Origin: Candidatus Sericytochromatia bacterium
GTDB lineage: Bacteria; Cyanobacteriota; Sericytochromatia; S15B-MN24; UBA4093
Reading direction: 5' to 3'
Length of the DNA stretch: 64,000 nt
Assembly (NCBI GenBank): GCA_036676495.1
Contig: JAKFCT010000069.1
Coordinates: forward strand, 13,486-77,485
Shown here in pieces: positions 5,839-58,554 of the stretch. Position 1 is the first letter of the stretch; each line of letters begins with the position of its first letter. A program made the position numbers and the translations under genes. The notes beneath the pieces are model-generated. The model searched no databases. It had not been told where the DNA came from and was given only the letters and a program-made list of their open reading frames with translations.

Positions 5839-7323
5839 TCAGGGGCTAGTGACTTCGATATGGAAGCCGTCCCCCTCCCGTCGCAGAACTGCTTGTTGCG
5901 CGCGCAGCTTGAAGCCGGGCTGTTCGACCTCGAGGCTTCCTGAGGCGACCGAGGAGCCTGCGAGAAGCGGTTTTCCATTAACCCGGATCGCGCTCGGCTC
6001 CAGATTTCGGTATAGCTCGACCGTCAGTACCTTGGGCATGGTGTGTCGGATTGCGATGACGTTCTCCATCGTCAGCACCGGTTGTTTTGTCTTGGCGTGG
6101 GTGAACGCGAGAAGTTTACCTCGGGTGAGCCGGCGACCATCCGCGATGTCCCACGACTCGACCCATGAGCCGCCCATCGAGACGAGGTGCGAGGGCAGCT
6201 TCAGCGACAGCCGCGTTGCTCCCTGGCTGCGGAACTCCGTCATGACGTGCTCAATCTCACGGGACTCGGCTGCGGCCTGGGCTTGAAACTGAGCCTTGTG
6301 GCGCGACAGCTCTGCGTCGATGTTGTAGCGCTTCCCGAGTTGCTGGATGATTTCTTCGGGGCGCTGTTGCGGGCTCACGGCCTCCGCGAGAAGCCCATCC
6401 AGGGAGTCGACGTAATCCGAGAAGCGGCCTTTCCATTCTGGCATCAAGCGGTCCAAGAGATGGCAGATGGCCGCGCCCATGACGTAATACCGCGAGCGAT
6501 CCGGATCCTGCTGCTTCTCTAGCGCCGCTTTCAGCCTGGACGTCGTATAGGCGATGTGATTGGAGGCCCCCTTGGGATGGCTGCGCTCGAAGAACTTGTC
6601 CGTCAGGTACTGGGCCGTGCCTTCCGTTACCATCATGCCTTGCCGGTAATCCGCGTAATTCTTCGGGATCATGCTGTCGTGCTTCTGGCGTACCGCCAAG
6701 TAGAGCATGGCCCCGGTCTTGAGCGAGTTCGGGGTGCTTTCCCCGATGAGGCGTGCGAGAAGTGAGGCTTCGAGTTGCGTATAGGCGAAGTCTTCGGCGT
6801 CGAGAAGGCGCTCGTCGCCCTTTGCCATGCGGTGCATGAAATTTTCTTGGGCGGTGAAGTGAAAGGTTTCGTGGAACAGCGTCAGAAACTCGTGGATCGG
6901 ATCCAGGGTCTCAGCCGTCTTCGCTTGCGCCAATTGCTTGACGATGAAGACGCGTTCGCCGTCGACATGCTTTTCATCCCAGGCGTTATCCGTTGCGAGC
7001 CCGAGTCGTCTCACGGTTTCGCCTTCAAGGCGCTTGACGCTAGGCAACGATGGAAGCGGCCGCCCGTCTAGCCTTTTGGACGTGCTCGTCGGGGGAGCGT
7101 TCAACAAGTAGTAGGTGTCACCAGTCCCGTAAACCAGCGGGTAGCTGGTGAGATCGTAGCCAGGCCAGACGGGGCCTTCTTTCGCGCTGTTTAGGTAGCC
7201 GACGAGACGCGTCAGGACCACCTCATCGTGACTTGGCGCCGGTTTCGCCGCCGCCTGGATCGGTTGGGGCAGCATCGCAAGTAAGAGAAAGAGAGAGATG
7301 GCGAGTCGCTTCTTGATGCGCAT
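5839..7323 (-). CDS. Secreted putative zinc metalloprotease (gluzincin-like)
   Basis: Signal peptide; HETFH followed by EGTAQY. Confidence 0.65.
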   Translation of the reverse strand: MRIKKRLAISLFLLLAMLPQPIQAAAKPAPSHDEVVLTRLVGYLNSAKEGPVWPGYDLTSYPLVYGTGDTYYLLNAPPTSTSKRLDGRPLPSLPSVKRLEGETVRRLGLATDNAWDEKHVDGERVFIVKQLAQAKTAETLDPIHEFLTLFHETFHFTAQENFMHRMAKGDERLLDAEDFAYTQLEASLLARLIGESTPNSLKTGAMLYLAVRQKHDSMIPKNYADYRQGMMVTEGTAQYLTDKFFERSHPKGASNHIAYTTSRLKAALEKQQDPDRSRYYVMGAAICHLLDRLMPEWKGRFSDYVDSLDGLLAEAVSPQQRPEEIIQQLGKRYNIDAELSRHKAQFQAQAAAESREIEHVMTEFRSQGATRLSLKLPSHLVSMGGSWVESWDIADGRRLTRGKLLAFTHAKTKQPVLTMENVIAIRHTMPKVLTVELYRNLEPSAIRVNGKPLLAGSSVASGSLEVEQPGFKLRAQQAVLRREGDGFHIEVTSP

Positions 7324-7410
7324 CGTGGCCTCCGTGCTCGGTAGGTGGCTCTAGCAACATACCCGATCGCGACAAAAGAAAGGGTGCCAGCAAGCGATCG
7401 ACAGGGTTCC

Positions 7411-7565
7411 TTGACAGCGAAACGGGACATGTGGCAGGATGCGTACGGTCCATCCCGAGGAGGTCCCGACCGCGATGTAATTCCTGACATACGGCCATAT
7501 CCCCAGAATGCAGGCGCGCCGCAAGACGGTCGCAGCCGACGTGCAATGCGAGGACCCGTATGTCA
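7411..7565 (+). promoter_or_regulatory. Promoter and attenuator-like leader of the ABC-F gene, with a start-stop uORF
   Basis: TTGACA-18-CAGGAT; GAGGAGGT (7457-7464) then ATGTAA (7475-7480); 7485-7494 is complementary to 7556-7565. Confidence 0.65.
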
Positions 7566-9059
7566 CTTCTTTCCGCGAGCCGGGCGACGTTCCGGCATCC
7601 GGCCATGCCGGACGATCTCTTCTCGGACGTCACCTTCCACATTTCGCCTGGCGATCGGATCGCCCTCGTCGGCCCCAACGGGGCCGGCAAAACGACGCTT
7701 CTCAAGCTCATGACCGGTGCGCTCATGCTCACCGAGGGGGCCATCGTACGGCGGCGCGGCCTGCTCGTCGCGACGATGGACCAGGTTTCCGAAGCGCCTT
7801 CCGATCGATCTCTCTTGGCCCATGTCGCGGCAGCCGAGCCTGATGGCGCCGAATGGCGCGCCGTGATGGTGCTCGAGGGCCTGGGGCTGCCGGCCTCAAT
7901 CCACGACGCGCCATGGGGCACGCTCTCCGCGGGACAGCGCTCGCGCGCCATGCTCGCGGCGCTGCTCGTCGCCCCGGCGGATCTGCTCTTGCTCGACGAG
8001 CCGACCAACCATCTCGACGCGGAGGGGCGCGACTGGCTCGAAGCATGGCTGCCCCAGCAGGACGCCGCCATCGTGCTCATCTCCCATGACCGGGCGTTCA
8101 TCGAAGCCTCCGCCTCACGGATCTTCGAGCTGCGTCGCGGCAAGCTCACCGTTCACGAGGGTGATTACGCCTATTTCCGTGAAGCCAAGGCCCTAGCCGA
8201 TCGCCAGGCATGGGCTGCCTTCGAGGGGCAGCAGCGCCGCCAATCGGCGGCCACCCGGGCCGCGGCGAAACGCACGGCTCTTGCTCAGGATGTCGCGAAG
8301 GCCCCGAAAGGCCCAGGCCTTGGCGATAAGTCCTTTTACAAGGCCAAGGCTGCGAAGGTGGAAAAGACGGCAAAGATCATCCAGGCACGGGCCGAACGAG
8401 TCCCCGAGGCTCCGAAGCCGATCCTCGACGACGACATTCCCGTCCTGGATTGGGGGTTCGTGCGTCGATCGGGCGAACTGCCACTTGCGGTCAGGGGGCT
8501 CGCAAAAGCCTACGGCGATCACGGCCTCTTCGAGGGGCTCAGCTTCGACCTCGGGCGCGGCGAGCGGCTGGCCGTCCTCGGACAGAACGGAGCAGGCAAG
8601 ACTACCCTGATCCGAATTCTGCTCGGCCTCGAGACCCCGGACGCCGGGGAGATCGTCTGGGGGCATGGCGCTCAGCCCGGCTGGTTCGGGCAAGAGGCAG
8701 AGCAGCTCGACCCGGAGCTTTCGGCGCTCTCTAACCTGCTCACGGTGCGCCCAGACCAGGCCCGGGCCAGACTTCTGCTCGCTTGTCTAAGATTACGCGG
8801 GGACCGGGCATTTCAGCCGGTAGGTACCATGAGCGCGGGGGAACGCGCCAAGGTCGCACTCGCCAGGCTCTTGCTCAGCGGCGCCAACGTGCTCCTGCTC
8901 GACGAGCCCACCAACCATCTCGATCTCGATACCCGTGAGGCCATTGAAGCGACCCTCGCGACGTATCCCGGTGCGATCGTGCTCGTGAGCCATGACCGAC
9001 GCTTCATCGAGGCGATCGCCACGAGGACCCTCACACTGGGGTCTCCTGAGAGGGGGTAA
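7560..9059 (+). CDS. ABC-F ATPase, probably ribosome-protection (ARE) type
   Basis: Two ABC domains (GPNGAGKT and GQNGAGKT; LLDEPTNHLD twice), no TM segments, extended basic interdomain linker. Confidence 0.9.
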   Translation: MSLLSASRATFRHPAMPDDLFSDVTFHISPGDRIALVGPNGAGKTTLLKLMTGALMLTEGAIVRRRGLLVATMDQVSEAPSDRSLLAHVAAAEPDGAEWRAVMVLEGLGLPASIHDAPWGTLSAGQRSRAMLAALLVAPADLLLLDEPTNHLDAEGRDWLEAWLPQQDAAIVLISHDRAFIEASASRIFELRRGKLTVHEGDYAYFREAKALADRQAWAAFEGQQRRQSAATRAAAKRTALAQDVAKAPKGPGLGDKSFYKAKAAKVEKTAKIIQARAERVPEAPKPILDDDIPVLDWGFVRRSGELPLAVRGLAKAYGDHGLFEGLSFDLGRGERLAVLGQNGAGKTTLIRILLGLETPDAGEIVWGHGAQPGWFGQEAEQLDPELSALSNLLTVRPDQARARLLLACLRLRGDRAFQPVGTMSAGERAKVALARLLLSGANVLLLDEPTNHLDLDTREAIEATLATYPGAIVLVSHDRRFIEAIATRTLTLGSPERG

Positions 9060-10975: not shown

Positions 10976-12091
10976 TTAGTCGATTTGAGGACTTGCTGTG
11001 CAGTTGGGAACCGACACGGAGTCCATCTCACCGGGGAAGAACCGTTGCTTGAGCCAGAGCGAGACGTAGACCAAGGCCACCAGAGCGGGCACTTCGACAA
11101 GGGGACCTACGACCGCAGCTAAGGCTTCCGAGGATGCGATGCCGAACATCCCGACAGCCACCGCGATCGCCAGTTCGAAGTTGTTTCCCGCTGCGGTGAA
11201 GGATAGAGCTGCCGTCTCCTGGTAATTGAAGCCCAAGGCCTTGCTCACGGCGAAGGCGAGGAAGAACATCACCAGGAAGTAGAGCACGAGCGGAATCGAG
11301 ATGCGAACGACATCCACGGGGAGGCTGACTATCTTGCTGCCCTGCATGCTGAACATCAAGACGATGGTGTATAGCAGGCCGATGAGGGCCGTTGGCCCCA
11401 GCTTGGGCATCAGGACGTTGTCGTACCAGTCGCGTCCCTTCAAGCGAACGCCCACGATACGGGTGATGGCACCCAGGGCCAGAGGGATGCCGAGGAAGAT
11501 GAGGACGCTCTTGGCGATGGCCCACATGGAGACGTCGAGTGCAGTGGCCGTGCCGCCCAGCCAGACCGGTAGGACCGTCAGGAAGAAGTAGCCCAACACC
11601 GAGTACATCGCGATCTGGAAAAGGGAGTTGAGCGCCACCATGATGGCAGCGGCTTCGCTGTCGCCTTTCGCGAGCATGTTCCAGAGCAGGACCATGGCGA
11701 TGCAGCGGGCGAGCCCAATCATGATGAGGCCGGTTCGGTACTCCGGCAGGTCGGGTAGCATCACCCAGGCCAGGCTGAACATCACCACCGGTCCGAGAAT
11801 CCAGTTGAAGAACAGCGAGGCCCCTAAGAGCTTCCCCTTCGCCTTGAATGTTCCGAGGGTTTCGTAGCGGACCTTGGCGAGGACCGGATACATCATCCAG
11901 AGCAAACCGATAGCGATGGGCAGCGATACATCCGCCACCTGGACGGCATCAAGGGCCGGGCCGATACCCGGAAAGACCTTCCCGAGCAGAACGCCCAGCG
12001 CCATGGCGGCGAAGATCCAGAGGGGTAGGAAACGGTCGATGAGAGACAGCTTCCCGACGATGTTCGATACCTGAACGGCTTCTGTGGCCAT
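10976..12091 (-). CDS. acr3: Arsenite efflux transporter Acr3
   Basis: LSLIDRFLPLWI, GLARCIAMV, AAGNNFELAIAVA, GPLVEVP. Confidence 0.95.
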   Translation of the reverse strand: MATEAVQVSNIVGKLSLIDRFLPLWIFAAMALGVLLGKVFPGIGPALDAVQVADVSLPIAIGLLWMMYPVLAKVRYETLGTFKAKGKLLGASLFFNWILGPVVMFSLAWVMLPDLPEYRTGLIMIGLARCIAMVLLWNMLAKGDSEAAAIMVALNSLFQIAMYSVLGYFFLTVLPVWLGGTATALDVSMWAIAKSVLIFLGIPLALGAITRIVGVRLKGRDWYDNVLMPKLGPTALIGLLYTIVLMFSMQGSKIVSLPVDVVRISIPLVLYFLVMFFLAFAVSKALGFNYQETAALSFTAAGNNFELAIAVAVGMFGIASSEALAAVVGPLVEVPALVALVYVSLWLKQRFFPGEMDSVSVPNCTASPQID

Positions 12092-12092
12092 G

Positions 12093-12416
12093 CTACAGCT
12101 CCTCGAAGATGGCCAAAGGCTCCTTGGCGGTGTCAGTGGCCTTGTAGTAGTTCCAGCGGCCCTGTTTCCGAGCCGTGACCAGGCCTGCTTGGCTCAGAAC
12201 CGACAGGTGATGCGAGAGACTGCCTTGGGGCATCCCGAGCACTTCCATGAGGTCGCAGACGCAGACCTCGTGGTCCTTCACGAGGTGCAGCAACTTGAGG
12301 CGAACCTCGTCGCCCAGCGCCTTGAAGAGCCGGGCCTTGTCGGCCAGCCCGGCGGGCAACACGGTTGGGTTTGGACTCTCACAGCAGGCGGTGAGCTGCT
12401 TCAACTTCTTGAGCAT
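12093..12416 (-). CDS. arsR: ArsR family repressor
   Basis: FKALGDEVRL..EVCVCDL..SHHL..RKQGRWNYY. Confidence 0.9.
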   Translation of the reverse strand: MLKKLKQLTACCESPNPTVLPAGLADKARLFKALGDEVRLKLLHLVKDHEVCVCDLMEVLGMPQGSLSHHLSVLSQAGLVTARKQGRWNYYKATDTAKEPLAIFEEL

Positions 12417-12441
12417 GGGATCCCCTTGACAAGCTACGAAC

Positions 12442-12479
12442 CCATCGATTAATTTCGATTCATCGAGAAACGTCGATGG
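12442..12479. promoter_or_regulatory. Probable ArsR operator (two ATCGA-N6-TCGAT inverted repeats)
   Basis: ccATCGAttaattTCGATtcATCGAgaaacgTCGATgg between the divergent ars genes. Confidence 0.65.
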
Positions 12480-12526
12480 TTCTATTCTACACCCAGTTCG
12501 CTCAGATTCAAGCGAGGAGGTCCACC

Positions 12527-13309
12527 GTGCCCTTGCCCACTTCCCAAGATGAAATTCGCCAGGTCGTTCAGGAGCACTACGCCGAGGTCGCAAAAAGCGC
12601 GCAGAGCTGTTGCGCTCCATCCTGCTGCTCGCCCAGTTCGACAAGCTTGGGCTACACTGCAGAAGACCTGACCTCAGTTCCCAAGGGGGCCGACCTCGGC
12701 CTCGGGTGCGGCAACCCCCAGCTCATCTCTGAGCTGAAGCCGGGCGAGGTGGTGTTAGACCTTGGCAGCGGTGCGGGTTTTGACTGTTTCCTGGCCGCCA
12801 ACAAGGTCGGGCCGACCGGAATGGTCATCGGCGTGGACATGACCCCCGAGATGCTTGACCGTGCCCGTCAAAACGCCCACAAGGGGGGCTACTCCAACGT
12901 CGAGTTCCGTCAGGGGCTGATCGAGGACCTACCGGTCGAGGCTGGGACCGTCGACGTCATCATGTCGAACTGCGTCGTCAACCTCTCGCCTGCTAAGGCC
13001 CAGGTCTACCAAGAGGCGTTCCGGGTCCTGAAGCCGGGCGGGCGCATCGCCATCTCTGACGTGGTCGCATTCCAGCCGCTTCCCATCGAGATCCGGGAAC
13101 AGCTCTCACTTTACTCGGCGTGCATCGCAGGAGCCGCGACCATCGCCGACATCGAGGGCATGCTCCGTGATGCCGGTTTCGATAACATAAACATCCAGGC
13201 GAAGCTGGAGGAGAGCCGGATGATGGTCCAGGAGTGGGCGCCCGGCAGTGGATTGGAGGAGTACGTGGCCTCGGCGATGATCACCGCAAGCAAGGCGGTT
13301 GGCCAATGA
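12527..13309 (+). CDS. arsM: Arsenite methyltransferase
   Basis: LGLGCGNP, VLDLGSGAGFDC, SNCVVNL, CIAGA; GAGGAGG RBS. Confidence 0.93.
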   Translation: MPLPTSQDEIRQVVQEHYAEVAKSAQSCCAPSCCSPSSTSLGYTAEDLTSVPKGADLGLGCGNPQLISELKPGEVVLDLGSGAGFDCFLAANKVGPTGMVIGVDMTPEMLDRARQNAHKGGYSNVEFRQGLIEDLPVEAGTVDVIMSNCVVNLSPAKAQVYQEAFRVLKPGGRIAISDVVAFQPLPIEIREQLSLYSACIAGAATIADIEGMLRDAGFDNINIQAKLEESRMMVQEWAPGSGLEEYVASAMITASKAVGQ

Positions 13310-13713
13310 AACAGGTCCTGTTTGCCTGCATCCACAACACGGGGCGCAGCCAGATGGCTGAGGCATTCTTCAACCAGATCGCTGACCCCACCAAGGCACG
13401 CGCCATCTCCGGGGGAACTGAGCCGACATCGGGGATGAATCCCACCGTTCTCGCCGTCATGAAAGAGGTTGGCCTCGACTTGGTGGCCCAAGGGCATCAC
13501 CCGAAGCTCGCAGACCTGGACGCTCTCTCGGTCGGGGATCGGGCAATCTCCATGGGGTGTGGCGTGAGCCTGGCATGCCCTGCGCACTTGGGCCGGATGG
13601 AAGACTGGGGGCTGGATGACCCTAAGGGGCAGCCCATCGAGCGCGTCCGCGAGATTCGCGACGACATCAAGAAGCGAGTCGAGGGCCTGGTACGCGAACT
13701 TGGGGTTTTGTAA
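13306..13713 (+). CDS. arsC: Arsenate reductase (LMW-PTP type)
   Basis: CIHNTGRSQMAEA...DWGLDDPKG. Confidence 0.9.
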   Translation: MKQVLFACIHNTGRSQMAEAFFNQIADPTKARAISGGTEPTSGMNPTVLAVMKEVGLDLVAQGHHPKLADLDALSVGDRAISMGCGVSLACPAHLGRMEDWGLDDPKGQPIERVREIRDDIKKRVEGLVRELGVL

Positions 13714-17617: not shown

Positions 17618-18106
17618 ATGAAGAAAGCCATCATCTACCTGTGGTATGAGCACGACGCGGAGGAGGCAGCACACTTCTATGCCCGGACCTTTCCCGACAG
17701 CAAGGTCGGCGCGGTGCAACGGGCGCCGTCCGACTTCCCGAGCGGCAAGGCGGGTGACGTGCTGACGGTCGAGTTCACGGTGTGCGGCCTGCCATGCGTG
17801 GGCCTCAACGGCGGGGACGCGTTCAAGCAAAGCGAAGCGTTCTCCTTCCAGATCGCCACCGAGGACCAGGCGGAGACCGACCGCTACTGGAACGCGATCG
17901 TCGGCAACGGCGGTGAGGAGAGCGCGTGCGGCTGGTGCAAGGACAAGTGGGGCGTGTCATGGCAGATTACGCCGCGCGTCCTGACCGAGGCGATGGCCCA
18001 GGGTGGCGAAGTCGCGAAGCGCGCGTTCGAGGCGATGATGGAGATGCAGAAGATCGACGTCGCAAAGATCGAGGCGGCGGTGCGCGGCGAGACTAACCCG
18101 GGATAG
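17618..18106 (+). CDS. VOC family protein (PhnB/3-demethylubiquinone-9 methyltransferase-like)
   Basis: LNGG..FKQSEAFSFQI..CGWCKDKWGVSWQI. Confidence 0.9.
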   Translation: MKKAIIYLWYEHDAEEAAHFYARTFPDSKVGAVQRAPSDFPSGKAGDVLTVEFTVCGLPCVGLNGGDAFKQSEAFSFQIATEDQAETDRYWNAIVGNGGEESACGWCKDKWGVSWQITPRVLTEAMAQGGEVAKRAFEAMMEMQKIDVAKIEAAVRGETNPG

Positions 18107-18189
18107 GATCTCCAGCGCCTAGGAAACTAACGAGGGCCTGACCGTTTTCGGTCAGGCCCAGCGTGCGTGCCACTCCCGCCGAGAGGATC

Positions 18190-18735
18190 CCCCAGTTCTT
18201 GGTCCGGGCAAAAGTGCGAAATTGGACCTCACTGTCACGATGTAAACGCTGAAACGCCCACTTGGCGGGCAAGTTCAGCGGGGGCCGAAAGTCCAACGCT
18301 TTGTGAGGGCGCCTGAAGTTATATGGGGCTCTCTGGGCAGCGATCTTACGCCTGGCGTCGTCCAGAGACAAGAACCAGTTGGGGGCCAAGCACTCGTCCT
18401 GAACGCTGCCGTTGGAGGATTCGATGAACGCATGGTCCTTGGGGTTACCGGGCCGAGAGAAGTCCAACGTGACGCCGTTCTCATAAGCCCAACGGTCCAA
18501 GCCTTTCGAGATGAACTCGGGGCCGTTGTCGACACGATTGTTCTTGGGGACGCCACGCTGATGGCGAAGCCGCTCGAGGACGGCCACGACCTGCTCGCCC
18601 TTGAGCCCCTGGTCCACCTCGATGGCTAAATTCTCCCGGGTAATCGTATCCAGTACGGTGAGGGACCGAAATCGCTTGTCATTGAAGAGCGCGTCTGAGA
18701 CGAATCCCATGTACCAGCGCTCGTTCTCTGCATTG
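18190..18735 (-). mobile_element. IS3-family (IS407-like) transposase OrfB remnant
   Basis: W.MGFVSDAL (first catalytic D mutated), VDNGPEF, RPGNP..AFIES.NG, YN..RPH.AL; N-terminus missing. Confidence 0.85.
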
Positions 18736-18740
18736 AGGAG

Positions 18741-18816
18741 AAGAGAAAGACCGCCAGCAGTTAGAAGCCCTGCTGGCGGTCTATTCTTGATTCCCTTGCG
18801 GGAATCAGGTCGGAGC
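18741..18816. repeat. Junction 5: hairpin + att core, cut by an IS3-like terminus at 18817
   Basis: Near-identical to 14613-14688; followed by TGACCTGACCCCAATTACTTGGCC. Confidence 0.85.
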
Positions 18817-19072
18817 TGACCTGACCCCAATTACTTGGCCGAAGTGAATTGAACTCGGAATGTAAAGGGATCCTTCCAAACGGAAGGGCCTACGCGGGGG
18901 AGAGCGCTTGACGACCCCAAGCCCTGGCGCGGCCGGGGCGTTCATACGGAGGGTGTCGGGGGAAGCTCTTCGCGTAGACCCTACCATAAACAAGAAATGT
19001 CACGGCGTGAGGCCGCATGATCTTATAGGATAGCAGTCCGCGCGGCCGGACTAAAGCACGCATCGGCGCGAT

Positions 19073-27267: not shown

Positions 27268-27620
27268 AGGGCCCCTCGGAGCCCTTCGAGCTGGCCGGCG
27301 TCGTGGAGCGCCTTGAGCTTGGACAGCTCGTGGGCGTCCAGCCAGAGGCCCTGGCAGGCGCTGCATCGGTTGATCTGAGCGGCCGGAGTGGCCACCAGCA
27401 CGGCGACGGCTCCGCAACGGGGACAGCGCATGGGGGCCTCGTCGTCGGCGCACGTCGGCGCGGTACGGTCGAGCGCGGGGGGCGGCGTCATCGCGTTCAA
27501 GAGGGGCTCGAGCTCGCCGGCGTCCAGCCAAATCCCGGTGCAACGCGGGCATTGGTCGACCTCGACTCCCAGGAGCATCTTGGGTTCGAGCCGGGCGGCA
27601 TAGTGTCTCGGGCACTTCAT
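27264..27620 (-). CDS. Double zf-TFIIB-like zinc-ribbon protein
   Basis: Two CP.. / C..C.G.WLD..EL repeats. Confidence 0.8.
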   Translation of the reverse strand: MKCPRHYAARLEPKMLLGVEVDQCPRCTGIWLDAGELEPLLNAMTPPPALDRTAPTCADDEAPMRCPRCGAVAVLVATPAAQINRCSACQGLWLDAHELSKLKALHDAGQLEGLRGAL

Positions 27621-27721
27621 GGCGATCGCTCTCCTTTGCCCATGTATACCCCGAATCGGAGGCTCCGCGCGGAGGAGGTAACGGGTAAGATGAGAGCATG
27701 ACCAATGGAAGGACGATCGCC

Positions 27722-28441
27722 ATGACCCGCACGACGCGCTTATCTTCTCAGGAAAAAGCCCGGATCCAGCGCTTGCTGGCCACGCTCGAGGCCCATCACC
27801 CCAACGCCACCACCGAGCTCAACTTCGACACGCCGTTTCAGCTGCTGATCGCCGTCATCCTCTCGGCCCAGTGCACCGACAAGCGCGTGAACATGGTCAC
27901 GGAAGGCCTGTTCGCCCGCTACCCGGACGCGGCGGCCATGGCCCGCCTCAGCGAGGCGGAGCTGCTCGAGGAGATCAAGTCGATCAACTTCGCTCCCACC
28001 AAGGCCAAGAACGTGGCGAAGACCTGCCGCATGCTGCTGGAGCTGCATGGCGGGGAAGTGCCGGGAAAGCGCGAGGAGCTCGAAGCCCTGGCGGGAGTGG
28101 GGCGTAAGACGGCGAACGTCGTGCTGGCAACGGCCTTCGACGTGCCGGCCCTCGCCGTCGACACCCATGTCTTCCGGGTATCGAAACGCCTGGGCCTTGC
28201 CAAGGCGGAGACTCCCGAGGAGACCGAGCGGCAACTGGAGCGCCTGATCCCCCGCGAGAAGTGGTCACTCGCCCATCACTGGCTGATCCTGCACGGCCGC
28301 TACACCTGCACGGCGCGCAAGCCGAACTGCGAGCGCTGTCCCTTGACCGCGGATTGTCCGGAGTATGCCAAGCTGATACGGCCTGCGGCGGGCACGACGG
28401 CCCGCGCCGGGAAAAAGGCGGGCAAGACGCGTCCCGTGTAG
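27722..28441 (+). CDS. nth: Endonuclease III
   Basis: LSAQCTD, GVGRKTANV, VDTHV, C..RKP.C..C.....C; alternative start at 27698. Confidence 0.95.
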   Translation: MTRTTRLSSQEKARIQRLLATLEAHHPNATTELNFDTPFQLLIAVILSAQCTDKRVNMVTEGLFARYPDAAAMARLSEAELLEEIKSINFAPTKAKNVAKTCRMLLELHGGEVPGKREELEALAGVGRKTANVVLATAFDVPALAVDTHVFRVSKRLGLAKAETPEETERQLERLIPREKWSLAHHWLILHGRYTCTARKPNCERCPLTADCPEYAKLIRPAAGTTARAGKKAGKTRPV

Positions 28442-45289: not shown

Positions 45290-45868
45290 CTAGCGGATCA
45301 GGCTGAGGAACTCGCTGCGGGCGTGGGGATCGCGCATGGCGCCTTCGTAGGCGGAGGTCACCATGGAGGCCCCTTCCTTCTTGACCCCGCGGCAGACCAT
45401 GCAGCCGTGGGCGGCCTCGATGACGACGGCGGCGCCGCGAGGCTGGAGGTGGTCCATCAGGGCCTGGACGACCTGGCGGGTGAGGCGCTCCTGGATCTGG
45501 AGGCGGCGCGCGAAGCAATCCACCAGCCGGGCAAGCTTGCTGAGGCCCACGACCTTCCGGCTGGGCAGGTAAGCGACGTGCGCTTTGCCGTCGAAGGGCA
45601 GCATGTGGTGCTCACAGGTGGAGTGGAAGGGGATGTCCTTGAGGAGGACCATCTCCTCGTAGCCTTCGACCTCCTCGAAGGTGGTGGCAAGAATGGCTTC
45701 GGGGTTCTGCTGGTAGCCCGCGAAGATCTCGGCCCAGGCGCGGATCACCCGGTCCGGGGTCTCGAGCAGCCCTTCTCGGTCGGGGTCTTCGCCGATGGTC
45801 TTGAGGATGGTCCGCAGAGCCAGCTTGACCTCTTCGAGCTGGGGAGGGATCGGGGTGGAAGTCGCCAT
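45290..45868 (-). CDS. folE: GTP cyclohydrolase I
   Basis: [41 protein letters not shown]. Confidence 0.95.
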
Positions 45869-46147
45869 CGTTATCATTCTCCTGGGCGGGGGCCGGAGCC
45901 GCCGTGATCGAGGCCCCGGAGGGACTCGGGTCGAACGCTGCGGCGGCATGCTTGCTCGTCGATGCCGCTCGATCCCAAACAGGATACCGCATGCGGCCGC
46001 CTCTGTCAGCGTCGTGGCGCATGGTTTCCCGCTAGACAGGCGGAAAGACGGGCCCGGATCGGGGCGTGCGGCCTGAGCTTGCCGGAGAAAGGGCGAGTTG
46101 CCTTGCGCTCGACGGCAGGCGAGCCCAAGGCAACCGGTCGGTGGAAA

Positions 46148-54799: not shown

Positions 54800-55384
54800 A
54801 TGGCACTCGAGTTGAAACTGGCAAAAGCCTCCGAGGTCGCTGCGTTGGAGGCCCTTCGAACCCTCCTGACGGCCATCGGGGAGGATCCGGATCGGGAGGG
54901 ACTTCGCGAAACGCCTGCCCGCATCCTGAAGAGCTGGTCGGAGCTGTTCGCCGGCTATCGGCAAGCGCCCGAAAGCATCCTTTCCACCACCTTCGCCGAC
55001 GTGGACGGCTACCAGGAGATGGTCCTGCTTCGCGATATCCCGTTTCATTCCACCTGTGAACATCACTGGCTGCCCTTCGAAGGCAAGGCGCATGTCGCCT
55101 ACCTCCCGGGGCAACGCGTCGTGGGCCTCTCGAAGCTCGCAAGGTTGGTGGATTGCTTTGCGCGCCGCCTCCAGATTCAAGAGCGGCTGACCCAGCAGGT
55201 CCTCCAAGCGCTGATGACGCATCTCTCGGCGCGGGGGGCCGCCGTGCTGATCGAGGCGCGCCATGCCTGCATGAGTTGCCGCGGAATCCGCAAAGACGGG
55301 GCCTCGATGCTGACCTCGGCGTTCGCCGGGGAACTCCTGCAATCCGAGCGGCGGGCGGAATTCCTGGCACTCGTCAAAGCCTGA
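54800..55384 (+). CDS. folE: GTP cyclohydrolase I, second copy
   Basis: [35 protein letters not shown]. Confidence 0.93.
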
Positions 55385-56156: not shown

Positions 56157-56972
56157 TCAGGCACCGAAGTGGCGCTCGAGGTAGGCAACTCCGTAACGGG
56201 AAAGATCCTTCGCGTCGAAGAGGAAGCTATGCGCCTGCCCGACGCTCCCCTCGGCGTGGCGATCGCCCATGACGTAGGCGCGCGCGATGCTCTCGACCGC
56301 ATCCATGCCGCCGCATTCCATGGCGGCGGCAAACCGCTCCGTGATGCCGTTGGAGTCCCAGTCCTCGATGGCCACCCATTCCTTCTCCCCGCGCGGGTTC
56401 AGGATGGGCATCTCATAGCTCACCCGGCGCTTGTTCGGAATATCGGCGATCGCCTCGCTGTAATGGAGGACCGTGAGCGCATCCAAGGGGGCTCCCAGGA
56501 GCAAGACCTTGCCTCCATGACGAATGAAACGCTCAAGGGGAGACCCGGGACCGTAGGCGCTTTGCAGCGGATGCTCGGAGGTCAGATTGCTGGCCAGGGG
56601 GCCAATCGCGGCCATCGAGGCATCGGGATGCCCGGAGCGCTTCACCTCGGGATGGCGGCAAATGACCGTGTTCAGGTAGCCCCACTCCGGATACGCGGCG
56701 GCCCTGGCCGGATCGAAGGCGGGCCATGCCGATTTTTCGGCGGCGGCTAGCTGATTGCCGTTCAAGGTCTCCGCGTAGGGCGAGCGATCCCAGGACACGT
56801 AGGCCATCAGCGTGCCTTCGGGCCCGAGGGAGTCCAGCAGCGCCTTCAAGACGCCCTCGGCCCCGCCTTCGACGGGGCCGAGACGACGCAGCGCGGCATG
56901 GACCATCACCCGATCCCCCGGCATGACGCCGAGCTTGCGCAAGTCTCTCACCAGGGATGACGGAGTGATCAC
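56157..56972 (-). CDS. aac(3): Aminoglycoside 3-N-acetyltransferase, AAC(3)-II-like
   Basis: VHA.L..LGPVEGGAE, SWDRSPY.ETLNG, RS.HPDASM, T.LHY.EA.ADIPNKR, D.NGI, YLE.HFG. Confidence 0.9.
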   Translation of the reverse strand: MITPSSLVRDLRKLGVMPGDRVMVHAALRRLGPVEGGAEGVLKALLDSLGPEGTLMAYVSWDRSPYAETLNGNQLAAAEKSAWPAFDPARAAAYPEWGYLNTVICRHPEVKRSGHPDASMAAIGPLASNLTSEHPLQSAYGPGSPLERFIRHGGKVLLLGAPLDALTVLHYSEAIADIPNKRRVSYEMPILNPRGEKEWVAIEDWDSNGITERFAAAMECGGMDAVESIARAYVMGDRHAEGSVGQAHSFLFDAKDLSRYGVAYLERHFGA

Positions 56973-56991
56973 CGGGCCTCCTTCGGGCGGG

Positions 56992-58554
56992 TCAAACGGG
57001 CAACGGGGCCGACGTGCGGATCAGGTGGTCGAAGGCCGAGAGGCTGGCCTTCGAGCCTTCGCCCATGGCGATGACGATCTGCTTGTAGGGAACCGTGGTG
57101 CAGTCCCCGGCCGCGAAGACGCCGGGCACCGACGTCTGGCCGCGGGCATCCACCTCGACCTCGCCGCGGTTCGAGAGGTTCAGCGTGCCCTTGAGCCAGT
57201 GGGTGTTCGGCAAGAGCCCGATCTGGACGAAGATGCCTTCCAGCTCGAGGTGCATGGCCTCGCCGCTGATCCGATCCGTGTAGGCCAGGCCGTTCACCTT
57301 GCTGCCGTCCCCGAGGACTTCGGTGGTCTGGGCGTTCACGATGATGGTGGCGTTCGGAAGGCTTTCCAGCTTCCGCTGCAGGACCGCGTCGGCCCGCAGC
57401 TGGCTGTCGAACTCCAGCAGGGTGACGTGCGAGACGATGCCGGCCAGGTCGATGGCAGCCTCGACGCCCGAATTGCCTCCGCCGATCACGGCCACGCGCT
57501 TGCCCGCAAACAGCGGACCGTCGCAGTGGGGACAGAAGGTGACGCCCTTCGTCTTGTACTGGGTCTCGCCGGGCACGTTCATCTCGCGCCAGCGGGCACC
57601 GGTGGCGATGATGACCGAGCGCGCCTTCAGGACGGCGCCGTTGGCGAGCCTGACCTGGTGCAGCACGTCGCCGGGAATGAGCTCCTCGGCGCGCTGCATG
57701 CGCATGATGTCGACGTTGTACTCCAGGACGTGCTGCTCCAGCGCGACCGCGAACTGCGGCCCCTCGGTGTGCTTGACCGAGACGAAGTTCTCGATGGCCA
57801 GGGTATCGAGGACCTGGCCTCCGAAGCGTTCGGCCAGGACGCCGGTGCGGATCCCCTTGCGGGCGGCATAGATGGCCGCCGCGGCGCCGGCGGGGCCACC
57901 GCCCACCACCAGCACGTCGTAGGGCTCCTTGGCGCTGAGCTTCTCGGCGTCGCGCTCCGCCGAGGCCGTATCGACCTTGGCGAGGACCTCCTCGAGGCTC
58001 ATGCGCCCCTGGCCGAACGGCTCGCCGTTGAGGAAGACCGAGGGGACGGCCATGATCTCGCGCGCCGTCACTTCGGCCTGGTTGGCTCCGCCCTCGATCA
58101 TCACGCTGGAGACGTTGGGGTTGAGGACGGCCATCAGGTTGAGGGCCTGGACCACGTCCGGGCAGTTCTGGCAGGTCAGCGAGACGAAGGTCTCGAAGCG
58201 GAACGTCCCCGTGAGGCCCTTGATCTGATCGAGGGTCTCGGCGTCCACCTTGGGAGGATGCCCGCCGGTTTGGAGGAGGGCCAGGACGAGCGAGGTGAAT
58301 TCGTGGCCCATGGGAAGGCCGGCGAACTCGATGCGTCCCGGCTCGCCGGGACGACCCACCGAGAAGGTGGGGCGACGGGAGGCGGTCCCGTCCTCGCGGA
58401 TGCTCACCTTGGGGGACAGGGAGGCGATGTCGGCCAGCAGCTCGCTCATCTGAGTCGAGGTCTCGCTGTCGTCGAGCGAGGCGACAAGCTCAATCGGCTG
58501 CTGAAGTTTTTCGAGGTATGCGGCCAGTTGGGCCTTGATGGATGCGTCGAGCAT
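56992..58554 (-). CDS. ahpF: Alkyl hydroperoxide reductase subunit F
   Basis: [34 protein letters not shown]. Confidence 0.97.

Follow-up and report, generated by a model that had tools for sequence, protein, structure and literature searches.

How a ribosome on a reading frame of a single codon could report the presence of an antibiotic is the question raised by the leader of an ABC-F ATPase gene (499 aa, 7560..9059, + strand) in the 64,000-nucleotide stretch of DNA analysed here, which will be denoted as the window. The gene, assigned from its ORF, domains and model, stands alone on its strand between divergent and convergent genes, and its leader harbors an upstream open reading frame (uORF) consisting of a start codon directly followed by a stop codon (ATG TAA, 7475..7480, +). 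Our preferred reading, to which a probability of roughly 0.58 is assigned, is that of a VmlR/CplR-like translational attenuator whose uORF comprises a single codon and which controls an ABC-F of the ribosome-protection type. The divergent gene (5839-7323, - strand) encodes 494 amino acids with a signal-peptide-like start and has no Pfam or NCBIfam match; it contains the sequence HETFH, which we take to be a possible metallopeptidase motif.

All elements of the leader, from the promoter and the Shine-Dalgarno (SD) sequence to ATG TAA, the complementary strands and the ABC-F start, are located exactly where the original prediction had placed them. The predicted sigma-70-type promoter (7411..7440, +) is composed of a perfect -35 box (TTGACA, 7411-7416), an 18-nt spacer and a -10 box (CAGGAT, 7435-7440) that agrees with the consensus at three of six positions and is preceded by TG at 7432-7433. 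In a consensus promoter scan it remains below threshold. As TTGACA with -10 boxes at a distance of 16-17 nt also precedes two tRNA genes of the window, this promoter type is one used by the genome, and its assignment to the ABC-F leader is plausible from the sequence, with the transcript presumably starting near 7447. The strong SD of the uORF, GAGGAGGT (7457..7464, +), is positioned 10 nt before the AUG. At +10 to +20 from the A of this AUG follows the anti-start strand (7484..7494, +), perfectly paired over 10 bp from 7485 on, with TGACATACGG (7485-7494) being complementary to CCGTATGTCA (7556-7565); the latter forms part of the 3′ arm of the stem (7556..7566, +), which holds the ABC-F start codon (7560-7562). 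These two strands constitute the single inverted repeat of at least 9 nt between 7300 and 7700. Between them, inner helices (7500..7554, +) are predicted to pair the SD of the ABC-F gene (GAGGA, 7550-7554) in part. The start at 7560 itself is supported by the near-invariant residues M1-S2-L3 across 61 aligned homologues. A terminator-like site was not detected by a scan of the leader, from which it follows that control would be translational, and Rfam covariance models gave nothing at gathering score and nothing meaningful by E-value in 7300-7700 or in the leader of the homologous locus L005 described below.

A second ATG at 7439 is in frame with AUG 7475 without a stop codon in between. The true uORF might accordingly comprise 13 codons (7439-7480) and begin with Met-Arg-Thr, in which case the SD-like run would simply encode Glu-Glu-Val, AUG 7475 would be the last codon and the ribosome would stall at termination, as described for MsrDL, where UAA occupies the A site of the stalled ribosome (PMC10314930). 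Its Met-Arg start would resemble the uORFs of the family. However, position 7439 is located inside the predicted -10 box, the SD match in front of it extends over 3 nt only, and within the intergenic region no other TTGAC-type promoter is found further upstream on this strand, so that a 13-codon uORF appears highly improbable.

In the predicted fold of the leader the stem 7484-7494/7556-7566 dominates, with pair probabilities of 0.92-0.999, and the unpaired probability of the ABC-F AUG in the free leader is 0.00. The leader as a whole is of unremarkable stability (z -0.70; 43 of 200 shuffles fold as well). Opening of the ABC-F start from -13 to +9 costs 15.8 kcal/mol, a value reached by 5 of 200 shuffles; among 71 control ABC-F leaders, three attain it in absolute terms and two in terms of z. 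Strongly sequestered starts are also observed in two control ABC-F leaders, L062 (EttA-like) and L074, with z of about 4.2 (20 shuffles). At the 5′ end a weak hairpin (7447..7466, +) is predicted to pair the uORF SD, which is mostly closed (unpaired probability 0.09-0.24 at 7459-7463), and opening of 7457-7484 costs 11.1 kcal/mol; in a separate fold of the leader the minimum structure has another weak pairing at the 5′ end. Such a hairpin would limit basal ribosome loading without drug. The original prediction had also named an alternative partner, ATGCAGG (7508-7514), for the segment 7483-7490. The two can pair, but the helix has a probability below 1e-4 in the full leader and is formed only in transcripts ending at 7520-7535. 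As an element of the on state it was rejected, since ATGCAGG partners the very strand that a stalled ribosome would cover; the helix is therefore a folding intermediate at most.

Footprints of ribosomes stalled at start codons are reported to end at +16 to +18 (PMC12121999), and a +16 toeprint is described for a start-codon stall (PMC9226507). If a footprint from -15 to +16 is imposed on AUG 7475, the ensemble opening cost of the ABC-F start drops from 15.3 to 7.9 kcal/mol, in agreement with the geometry proposed originally. A footprint ending at +13 gives only partial relief (10.3 kcal/mol), and footprints placed at least 7 nt further upstream give none. Among the positions from which a footprint opens the stem, the uORF AUG lies at the upstream limit.

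When the 236-nt intergenic region was shuffled 2000 times with its dinucleotides preserved, three shuffles contained a GGAGG-led AUG-stop and one a perfect stem of at least 10 bp over the ABC-F AUG, each alone corresponding to about 0.1%, while both together are found in none. On both strands of the 64-kb window one GGAGG-led AUG-stop is observed against 0.65 expected; the start-stop is thus not over-represented window-wide, and its location is the notable fact. A harsher control than shuffling is provided by real genes, namely the 55 of 57 window genes to which a start was given by script. Three of these 55, the ABC-F included, have a stem of at least 10 bp over the start, two have a start-stop behind an SD of at least 4 nt within 250 nt, and the ABC-F gene is the only one to combine an SD-led start-stop with a stem (1/55). 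In start-opening cost it ranks seventh, with six of the 55 higher. The other two stem-bearing genes, with stems of 12 bp over their starts, share one inverted repeat between divergent genes. A 21-nt inverted repeat (81%) at 27608-27628 and 27714-27734 holds the start codons of two divergent genes, which encode a small zinc-ribbon protein and an HhH-GPD glycosylase. The ABC-F loci of other genomes, 80 among the matches listed, comprise 6 that were unparsed, one member of the clade defined below and 73 controls (two of them with less than 100 nt upstream). In these 73 listed control loci no GGAGG-led start-stop is present, a start-stop behind a 4-nt SD occurs once, and the longest perfect stem measures 8 bp.

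These counts bear on the notion that the stem only damps translation in a static manner, SD-AUG-UAA being accidental or a standby loading site without drug sensing. The 0.65 sites expected per 64 kb, the z of -0.70 for the whole leader and the 12-bp stems over two other genes would be compatible with it. On the other hand, the sole site of the window falls within the 113-nt leader (3/2000 shuffles), and precisely where a footprint begins to open the stem, in the window leader as well as in that of L005; we therefore regard mere coincidence or static control as very unlikely.

Elsewhere in the window an arsenic-resistance-like cluster (10976-13710) is composed of an ArsR regulator, an Acr3-type (SBF) exporter, a methyltransferase and an LMW phosphatase/ArsC-like protein, as assigned by Pfam with putative functional names. 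An aminoglycoside 3-N-acetyltransferase family gene is located at 56160-57020 (-); just upstream on the same strand lie genes for a pyridine nucleotide-disulphide oxidoreductase, an AhpC/TSA protein and a Fur-family regulator. The 64 kb further contain two GTP cyclohydrolase I genes, two TatD genes and an isolated integrase core fragment (Pfam; positions recorded for this group: 45293-46147 (-), 54800-55381 (+); 18096-18830 (-)).

The ABC-F protein contains two ABC cassettes with intact Walker motifs and lacks a membrane domain. Its nine closest relatives share 66-93% identity, and one of them, like a short fragment, carries the NCBI label Candidatus Sericytochromatia, which makes this the probable lineage; the wider clade, at about 40-57% identity, carries source labels that include Acidobacteriota, Poribacteria and Entotheonella. 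The clade motif is present in 112 of the 121 proteins compared. With 166 residues the interdomain linker is close to the clade median of 165 (range 161-173, n=106); EttA/Uup/YbiT-like controls have 140-143 residues, two VmlR-like proteins 167 and Msr 175-176. The names VmlR-like, Uup and YbiT were assigned here on the basis of the best NCBIfam hits, the position in the tree and the presence of MIN uORFs. An extended interdomain linker marks ARE1-5 (PMC6723617), and the linker of the window protein is of this extended type; used alone as a PDB query, it retrieved nothing relevant. Structural superposition of the predicted model (pLDDT 91) yields the highest scores with LsaA (Z 39.6, rmsd 3.3, 483 aligned residues), VgaL (Z 39.6, rmsd 3.3) and VmlR2 (Z 39.1, rmsd 3.2) and a lower one with EttA (Z 37.5, rmsd 4.0), and VmlR2 is the best Foldseek match. 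Sequence scores are nearly tied between VmlR2 (224.5 bits) and EttA (224) and hence do not separate resistance from housekeeping ABC-Fs; a profile search ranks YheS first. The protein scores 393 against NF000355 (cut-off 380), a result that was dismissed as proof of resistance because 17 of 20 non-clade controls, one of them an EttA, pass as well. None of the gene-level NCBIfam cut-offs (Vga, Msr, Lsa, Sal, CplR, OptrA) is reached. In a quick 51-row tree, which holds no named Lsa, CplR, Sal, ARE4 or ARE5 references, the 14 rows of the clade group together on a branch of their own (SH-aLRT 98), separate from the Vga/Msr/VmlR-like branch and from the one with EttA, Uup, YbiT and OptrA. The earlier designation as an ARE-type ABC-F is thus upheld by the long linker and the LsaA/VgaL/VmlR2-like fold but not by this tree, where the protein falls outside the Vga/Msr/VmlR-like branch. 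Judged by its linker and model, it is built like an ABC-F protecting against pleuromutilins, lincosamides and streptogramin A (PLSA), and in the quick tree it forms a clade of its own. An experimentally tested member of this clade was not found in the literature search.

In the window ABC-F and its closest relatives the first ATPase cassette has an Arm subdomain shorter by about 37 residues, and clade members on different branches have Arms shortened to other lengths. Within this single clade the Arm has apparently been lost more than once, a loss also known from ARE1 and ARE2. The proteins in which Arm length was noted are that of the window (7560-9059) and P0001-P0006, P0071, P0075, P0089, P0106 and P0112.

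In another interpretation a genuine switch would respond to slow termination, to recycling or to general initiation stress instead of an antibiotic class, and the ABC-F would be a translation-rescue factor, not one of resistance. With UAA in the A site the dwell time of the ribosome would be set by release factors, and Api137 arrests ribosomes at start-stops (bioRxiv 10.1101/520783). Moreover, the clade falls into no named ARE subfamily of the quick tree, the sequence scores tie with those of EttA, YbiT and YheS, and the source labels of the members point to diverse environmental lineages. Opposed to this are the long linker, the best structural matches, which are PLSA-resistance ABC-Fs, and the L005 uORF, which starts with Met-Arg like the MR[I/M] of CplR (PMC10201436) and the MRI and MRIGA uORFs of long-linker loci. 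We consider a stress sensor unlikely.

Conservation of the leader was assessed with homologous loci. A genome scan with the 61-sequence alignment settled on generic ABC-F motifs (at least 601 stretches), and only one of the 80 loci listed belongs to the clade, namely L005 from a Bryobacteraceae genome (45% identical), which indicates that the clade is badly undersampled. The L005 leader contains a TATAAT box (905-910), a 5′ hairpin predicted by folding (917-932), a three-codon uORF without SD (Met-Arg-Arg-stop, 937-948) and an anti-RBS strand (943-958) that pairs the SD and the first codons of the ABC-F gene. The stop of the uORF (codon 4) is located inside this anti-start/anti-RBS strand. Within 905-1011, the SD-less Met-Arg-Arg uORF starts 4 nt after the 5′-terminal hairpin. 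The leader folds with a z of -3.9, and opening of its start costs 17.7 kcal/mol, reached by 1 of 200 shuffles; a footprint on the uORF AUG lowers the cost from 18.3 to 10.9 kcal/mol, the AUG again being situated at the edge of the opening zone. Primary-sequence homology between the two leaders was rejected, as 1085 of 2000 shuffles score as well, and the resemblance is therefore one of common layout and not demonstrated homology. Of the conservation anticipated for homologues, the layout of a uORF over an anti-start strand is thus found in L005, but not SD-AUG-UAA itself.

Further leader sequence is exposed by mis-called N-terminal extensions in 5 of 112 clade proteins. The longest, that of P0074, fits the uORF/anti-start stretch of L005 at 19 of 24 nt (5/1000 shuffles), while the match of the whole extension is marginal (31/1000 shuffles) and the anti-start test is weak alone (at least 11 nt in 28/200 shuffles); as indirect evidence, the extension is compatible with a three-codon uORF and incompatible with a start-stop. 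The extensions of P0050 and P0057 match the 3′ part of the L005 leader at 27 of 30 and 29 of 30 nt, respectively. Neither the plasmid collection (best listed 37.6-38.7%) nor the phage collection (best listed 36.7%) contained a clade member. The P0074 extension as query matched solely P0074 itself (1/1 candidate), a query with the spurious minus-strand ORF that overlaps the leader had no matches, and among 120 short fragments listed 8 have a clade-like start and none an N-terminal extension. Ten long-linker/resistance-type loci listed contain uORFs that include MIN (twice), MRI and MRIGA, and none of the ten has a start-stop behind an SD of at least 4 nt. The MIN uORFs of two VmlR-like loci show SD spacers of 14-15 nt, long like the 10 nt of the window. 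Candidate uORFs MRI, MRIGA and MIN were noted at the long-linker ABC-F loci L089, L086, L031 and L085. Distant lineages repeatedly show uORFs starting with Met-Arg, and the spacer between SD and AUG frequently measures 14-16 nt.

From these comparisons attenuation by a short uORF over an anti-start strand looks like a trait of the family, while the start-stop form is seen in this genome only and the sole clade leader compared has three codons. The start-stop could accordingly be a private lesion of, or an assembly indel in, an ordinary three-codon uORF, and the switch would then be degenerate or mis-tuned. AUG 7475 and a TGA inside the anti-start strand (7485-7487) are 10 nt apart, one more than the 9 required for a uORF of three codons, and the uORF stop of L005 is found at codon 4 inside its anti-start strand; this offset of 1 nt together with the stop placement in L005 makes a recent insertion or assembly indel a live rival. 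Yet this TGA is dictated in any case by its pairing with codon 2 (Ser) of the ABC-F, the assembly appears clean (no N, many long intact genes), no Pfam family is split over neighbouring ORFs (57 scanned), and SD, spacing and stem are all intact. A lesion thus appears quite unlikely, and we return to the one-codon attenuator.

In the off state of this attenuator the anti-start strand is predicted by folding to bury the ABC-F start codon. The weak 5′ hairpin would keep the uORF SD mostly closed, so that ribosomes load rarely, and those that do would leave quickly upon release-factor action on AUG-UAA. In the on state a drug, most likely a pleuromutilin, a lincosamide or streptogramin A, would hold a 70S complex with the AUG in the P site. 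The held ribosome, spanning about -15 to +16, would overlie the initial 6-7 of the stem's 11 pairs and thereby open the ABC-F start. By analogy with VmlR, the ABC-F may then clear the drug from ribosomes and dampen its own induction. Macrolides and other context-dependent elongation inhibitors would not be expected to induce. For this system the transcript start, translation of the uORF, the inducer and resistance are inferred. Compared to known uORF attenuators of ARE ABC-F genes (vmlR/cplR/vgaA type), the leader contains a short SD-led uORF, with one codon instead of three or more, and a repressing structure under the start-stalled footprint in silico; it contains no intrinsic terminator/antiterminator and is hence not of the transcriptional subtype.

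Arrest without a peptide bond, as postulated originally, has a precedent in retapamulin, which arrests ribosomes on natural bacterial start-stops (bioRxiv 10.1101/520783). Given the arrest by retapamulin and Api137 at such sites, a pleuromutilin response needs no sense codon, whereas a response to lincosamides or streptogramin A would need a drug block of release on the fMet complex. Lincomycin may block release on fMet complexes, but the literature search returned no passage for a lincosamide block of release-factor action on such complexes. The uORF of vmlR induces more weakly with MRK than with MIN (PMC9226507), and as uORF identity affects induction there, sense codons may matter. The strong SD in front of AUG-UAA could also allow ribosome loading and leakage when no drug is present.

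Several described systems come close to the proposed switch. The cplR leader of Clostridioides difficile likewise carries a short uORF in a 5′ hairpin and a stem sequestering the main RBS of a PLSA-type ABC-F, but its uORF has three codons (MR[I/M]) and its stem doubles as an intrinsic terminator, whereas the window leader has one codon and no terminator; translational attenuation alone is sufficient in cplR (PMC10201436). In the vmlR leader of Bacillus subtilis an SD-led uORF, whose start codon and SD are essential, also senses initiation-stalling drugs; it differs by a MIN tripeptide whose identity matters, by transcription attenuation with NusG pausing, by a longer leader and by its ARE2 protein (PMC9226507). 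At toiL-topAI of E. coli a retapamulin or tetracycline stall on the uORF start breaks a pairing and unmasks the RBS, although this uORF has multiple codons and several stall sites and the output is a toxin-antitoxin operon (PMC12121999). The streptococcal msrDL-msrD pair resembles the window in that an ABC-F is induced by a ribosome with UAA in the A site, yet a six-residue nascent peptide plus macrolide is needed and attenuation is transcriptional (PMC10314930). The E. coli start-stops in yecJ and hslR combine an SD-like sequence with AUG-stop and show retapamulin and Api137 arrest by toeprinting, but they are intragenic and out of frame and, in the account cited, are connected to no RNA switch and no inducible output (bioRxiv 10.1101/520783). 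The Arabidopsis NIP5;1 AUG-UAA is a one-codon uORF that senses a small molecule by ribosome stalling; it is, however, eukaryotic, boron-dependent and acts by mRNA decay (repression) rather than unmasking (PMC11915504).

The uORFs described in ABC-F leaders have at least three codons, with MR[I/M] in cplR, MIN in vmlR, MK[L/Q] in vmlR2 and MAGN in lsaA (PMC10201436), and further attenuators are known from are5sc (MLV) and tiaA (PMC12421871) and from lmrC (PMC8546547). Bacterial start-stops are described inside genes (PMC11955535) and at overlapping starts (PMC9841429), upstream ribosome-binding sites occlude a nearby start in Sinorhizobium (PMC13285730), and start-stop leaders are known in eukaryotes (PMC13338717). 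Neither a bacterial start-stop uORF acting as inducible sensor nor this ABC-F clade turned up in searches of the openly licensed PubMed Central and bioRxiv literature; the supplementary tables of PMC10201436, PMC12421871, PMC11955535 and the bioRxiv start-stop study could hold leader cases. By default uORF4u requires at least nine nucleotides (PMC10219788), so that start-stop leaders are skipped. As the described switches use at least three codons, the start-stop of the window may be the smallest version: the mechanism is known, and its one-codon form may be new and the smallest of its kind.

It is a tentative proposition that the start-stop senses initiation-arresting and termination-blocking drugs, ignores context-dependent elongation inhibitors and thereby controls an undescribed ribosome-protection ABC-F clade outside Bacillota and Actinomycetota. 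Should the start-stop be private to this genome, an ordinary attenuator on a new ABC-F clade would remain. If it works, it could serve as a context-free reporter for initiation- or termination-arresting drugs. The influence of uORF identity in vmlR leaves open whether PLSA sensing needs a nascent peptide or an A-site tRNA, and a working start-stop would be a natural example settling this question. The protein itself stands for a clade of long-linker ABC-Fs, about 110 in number, from environmental phyla.
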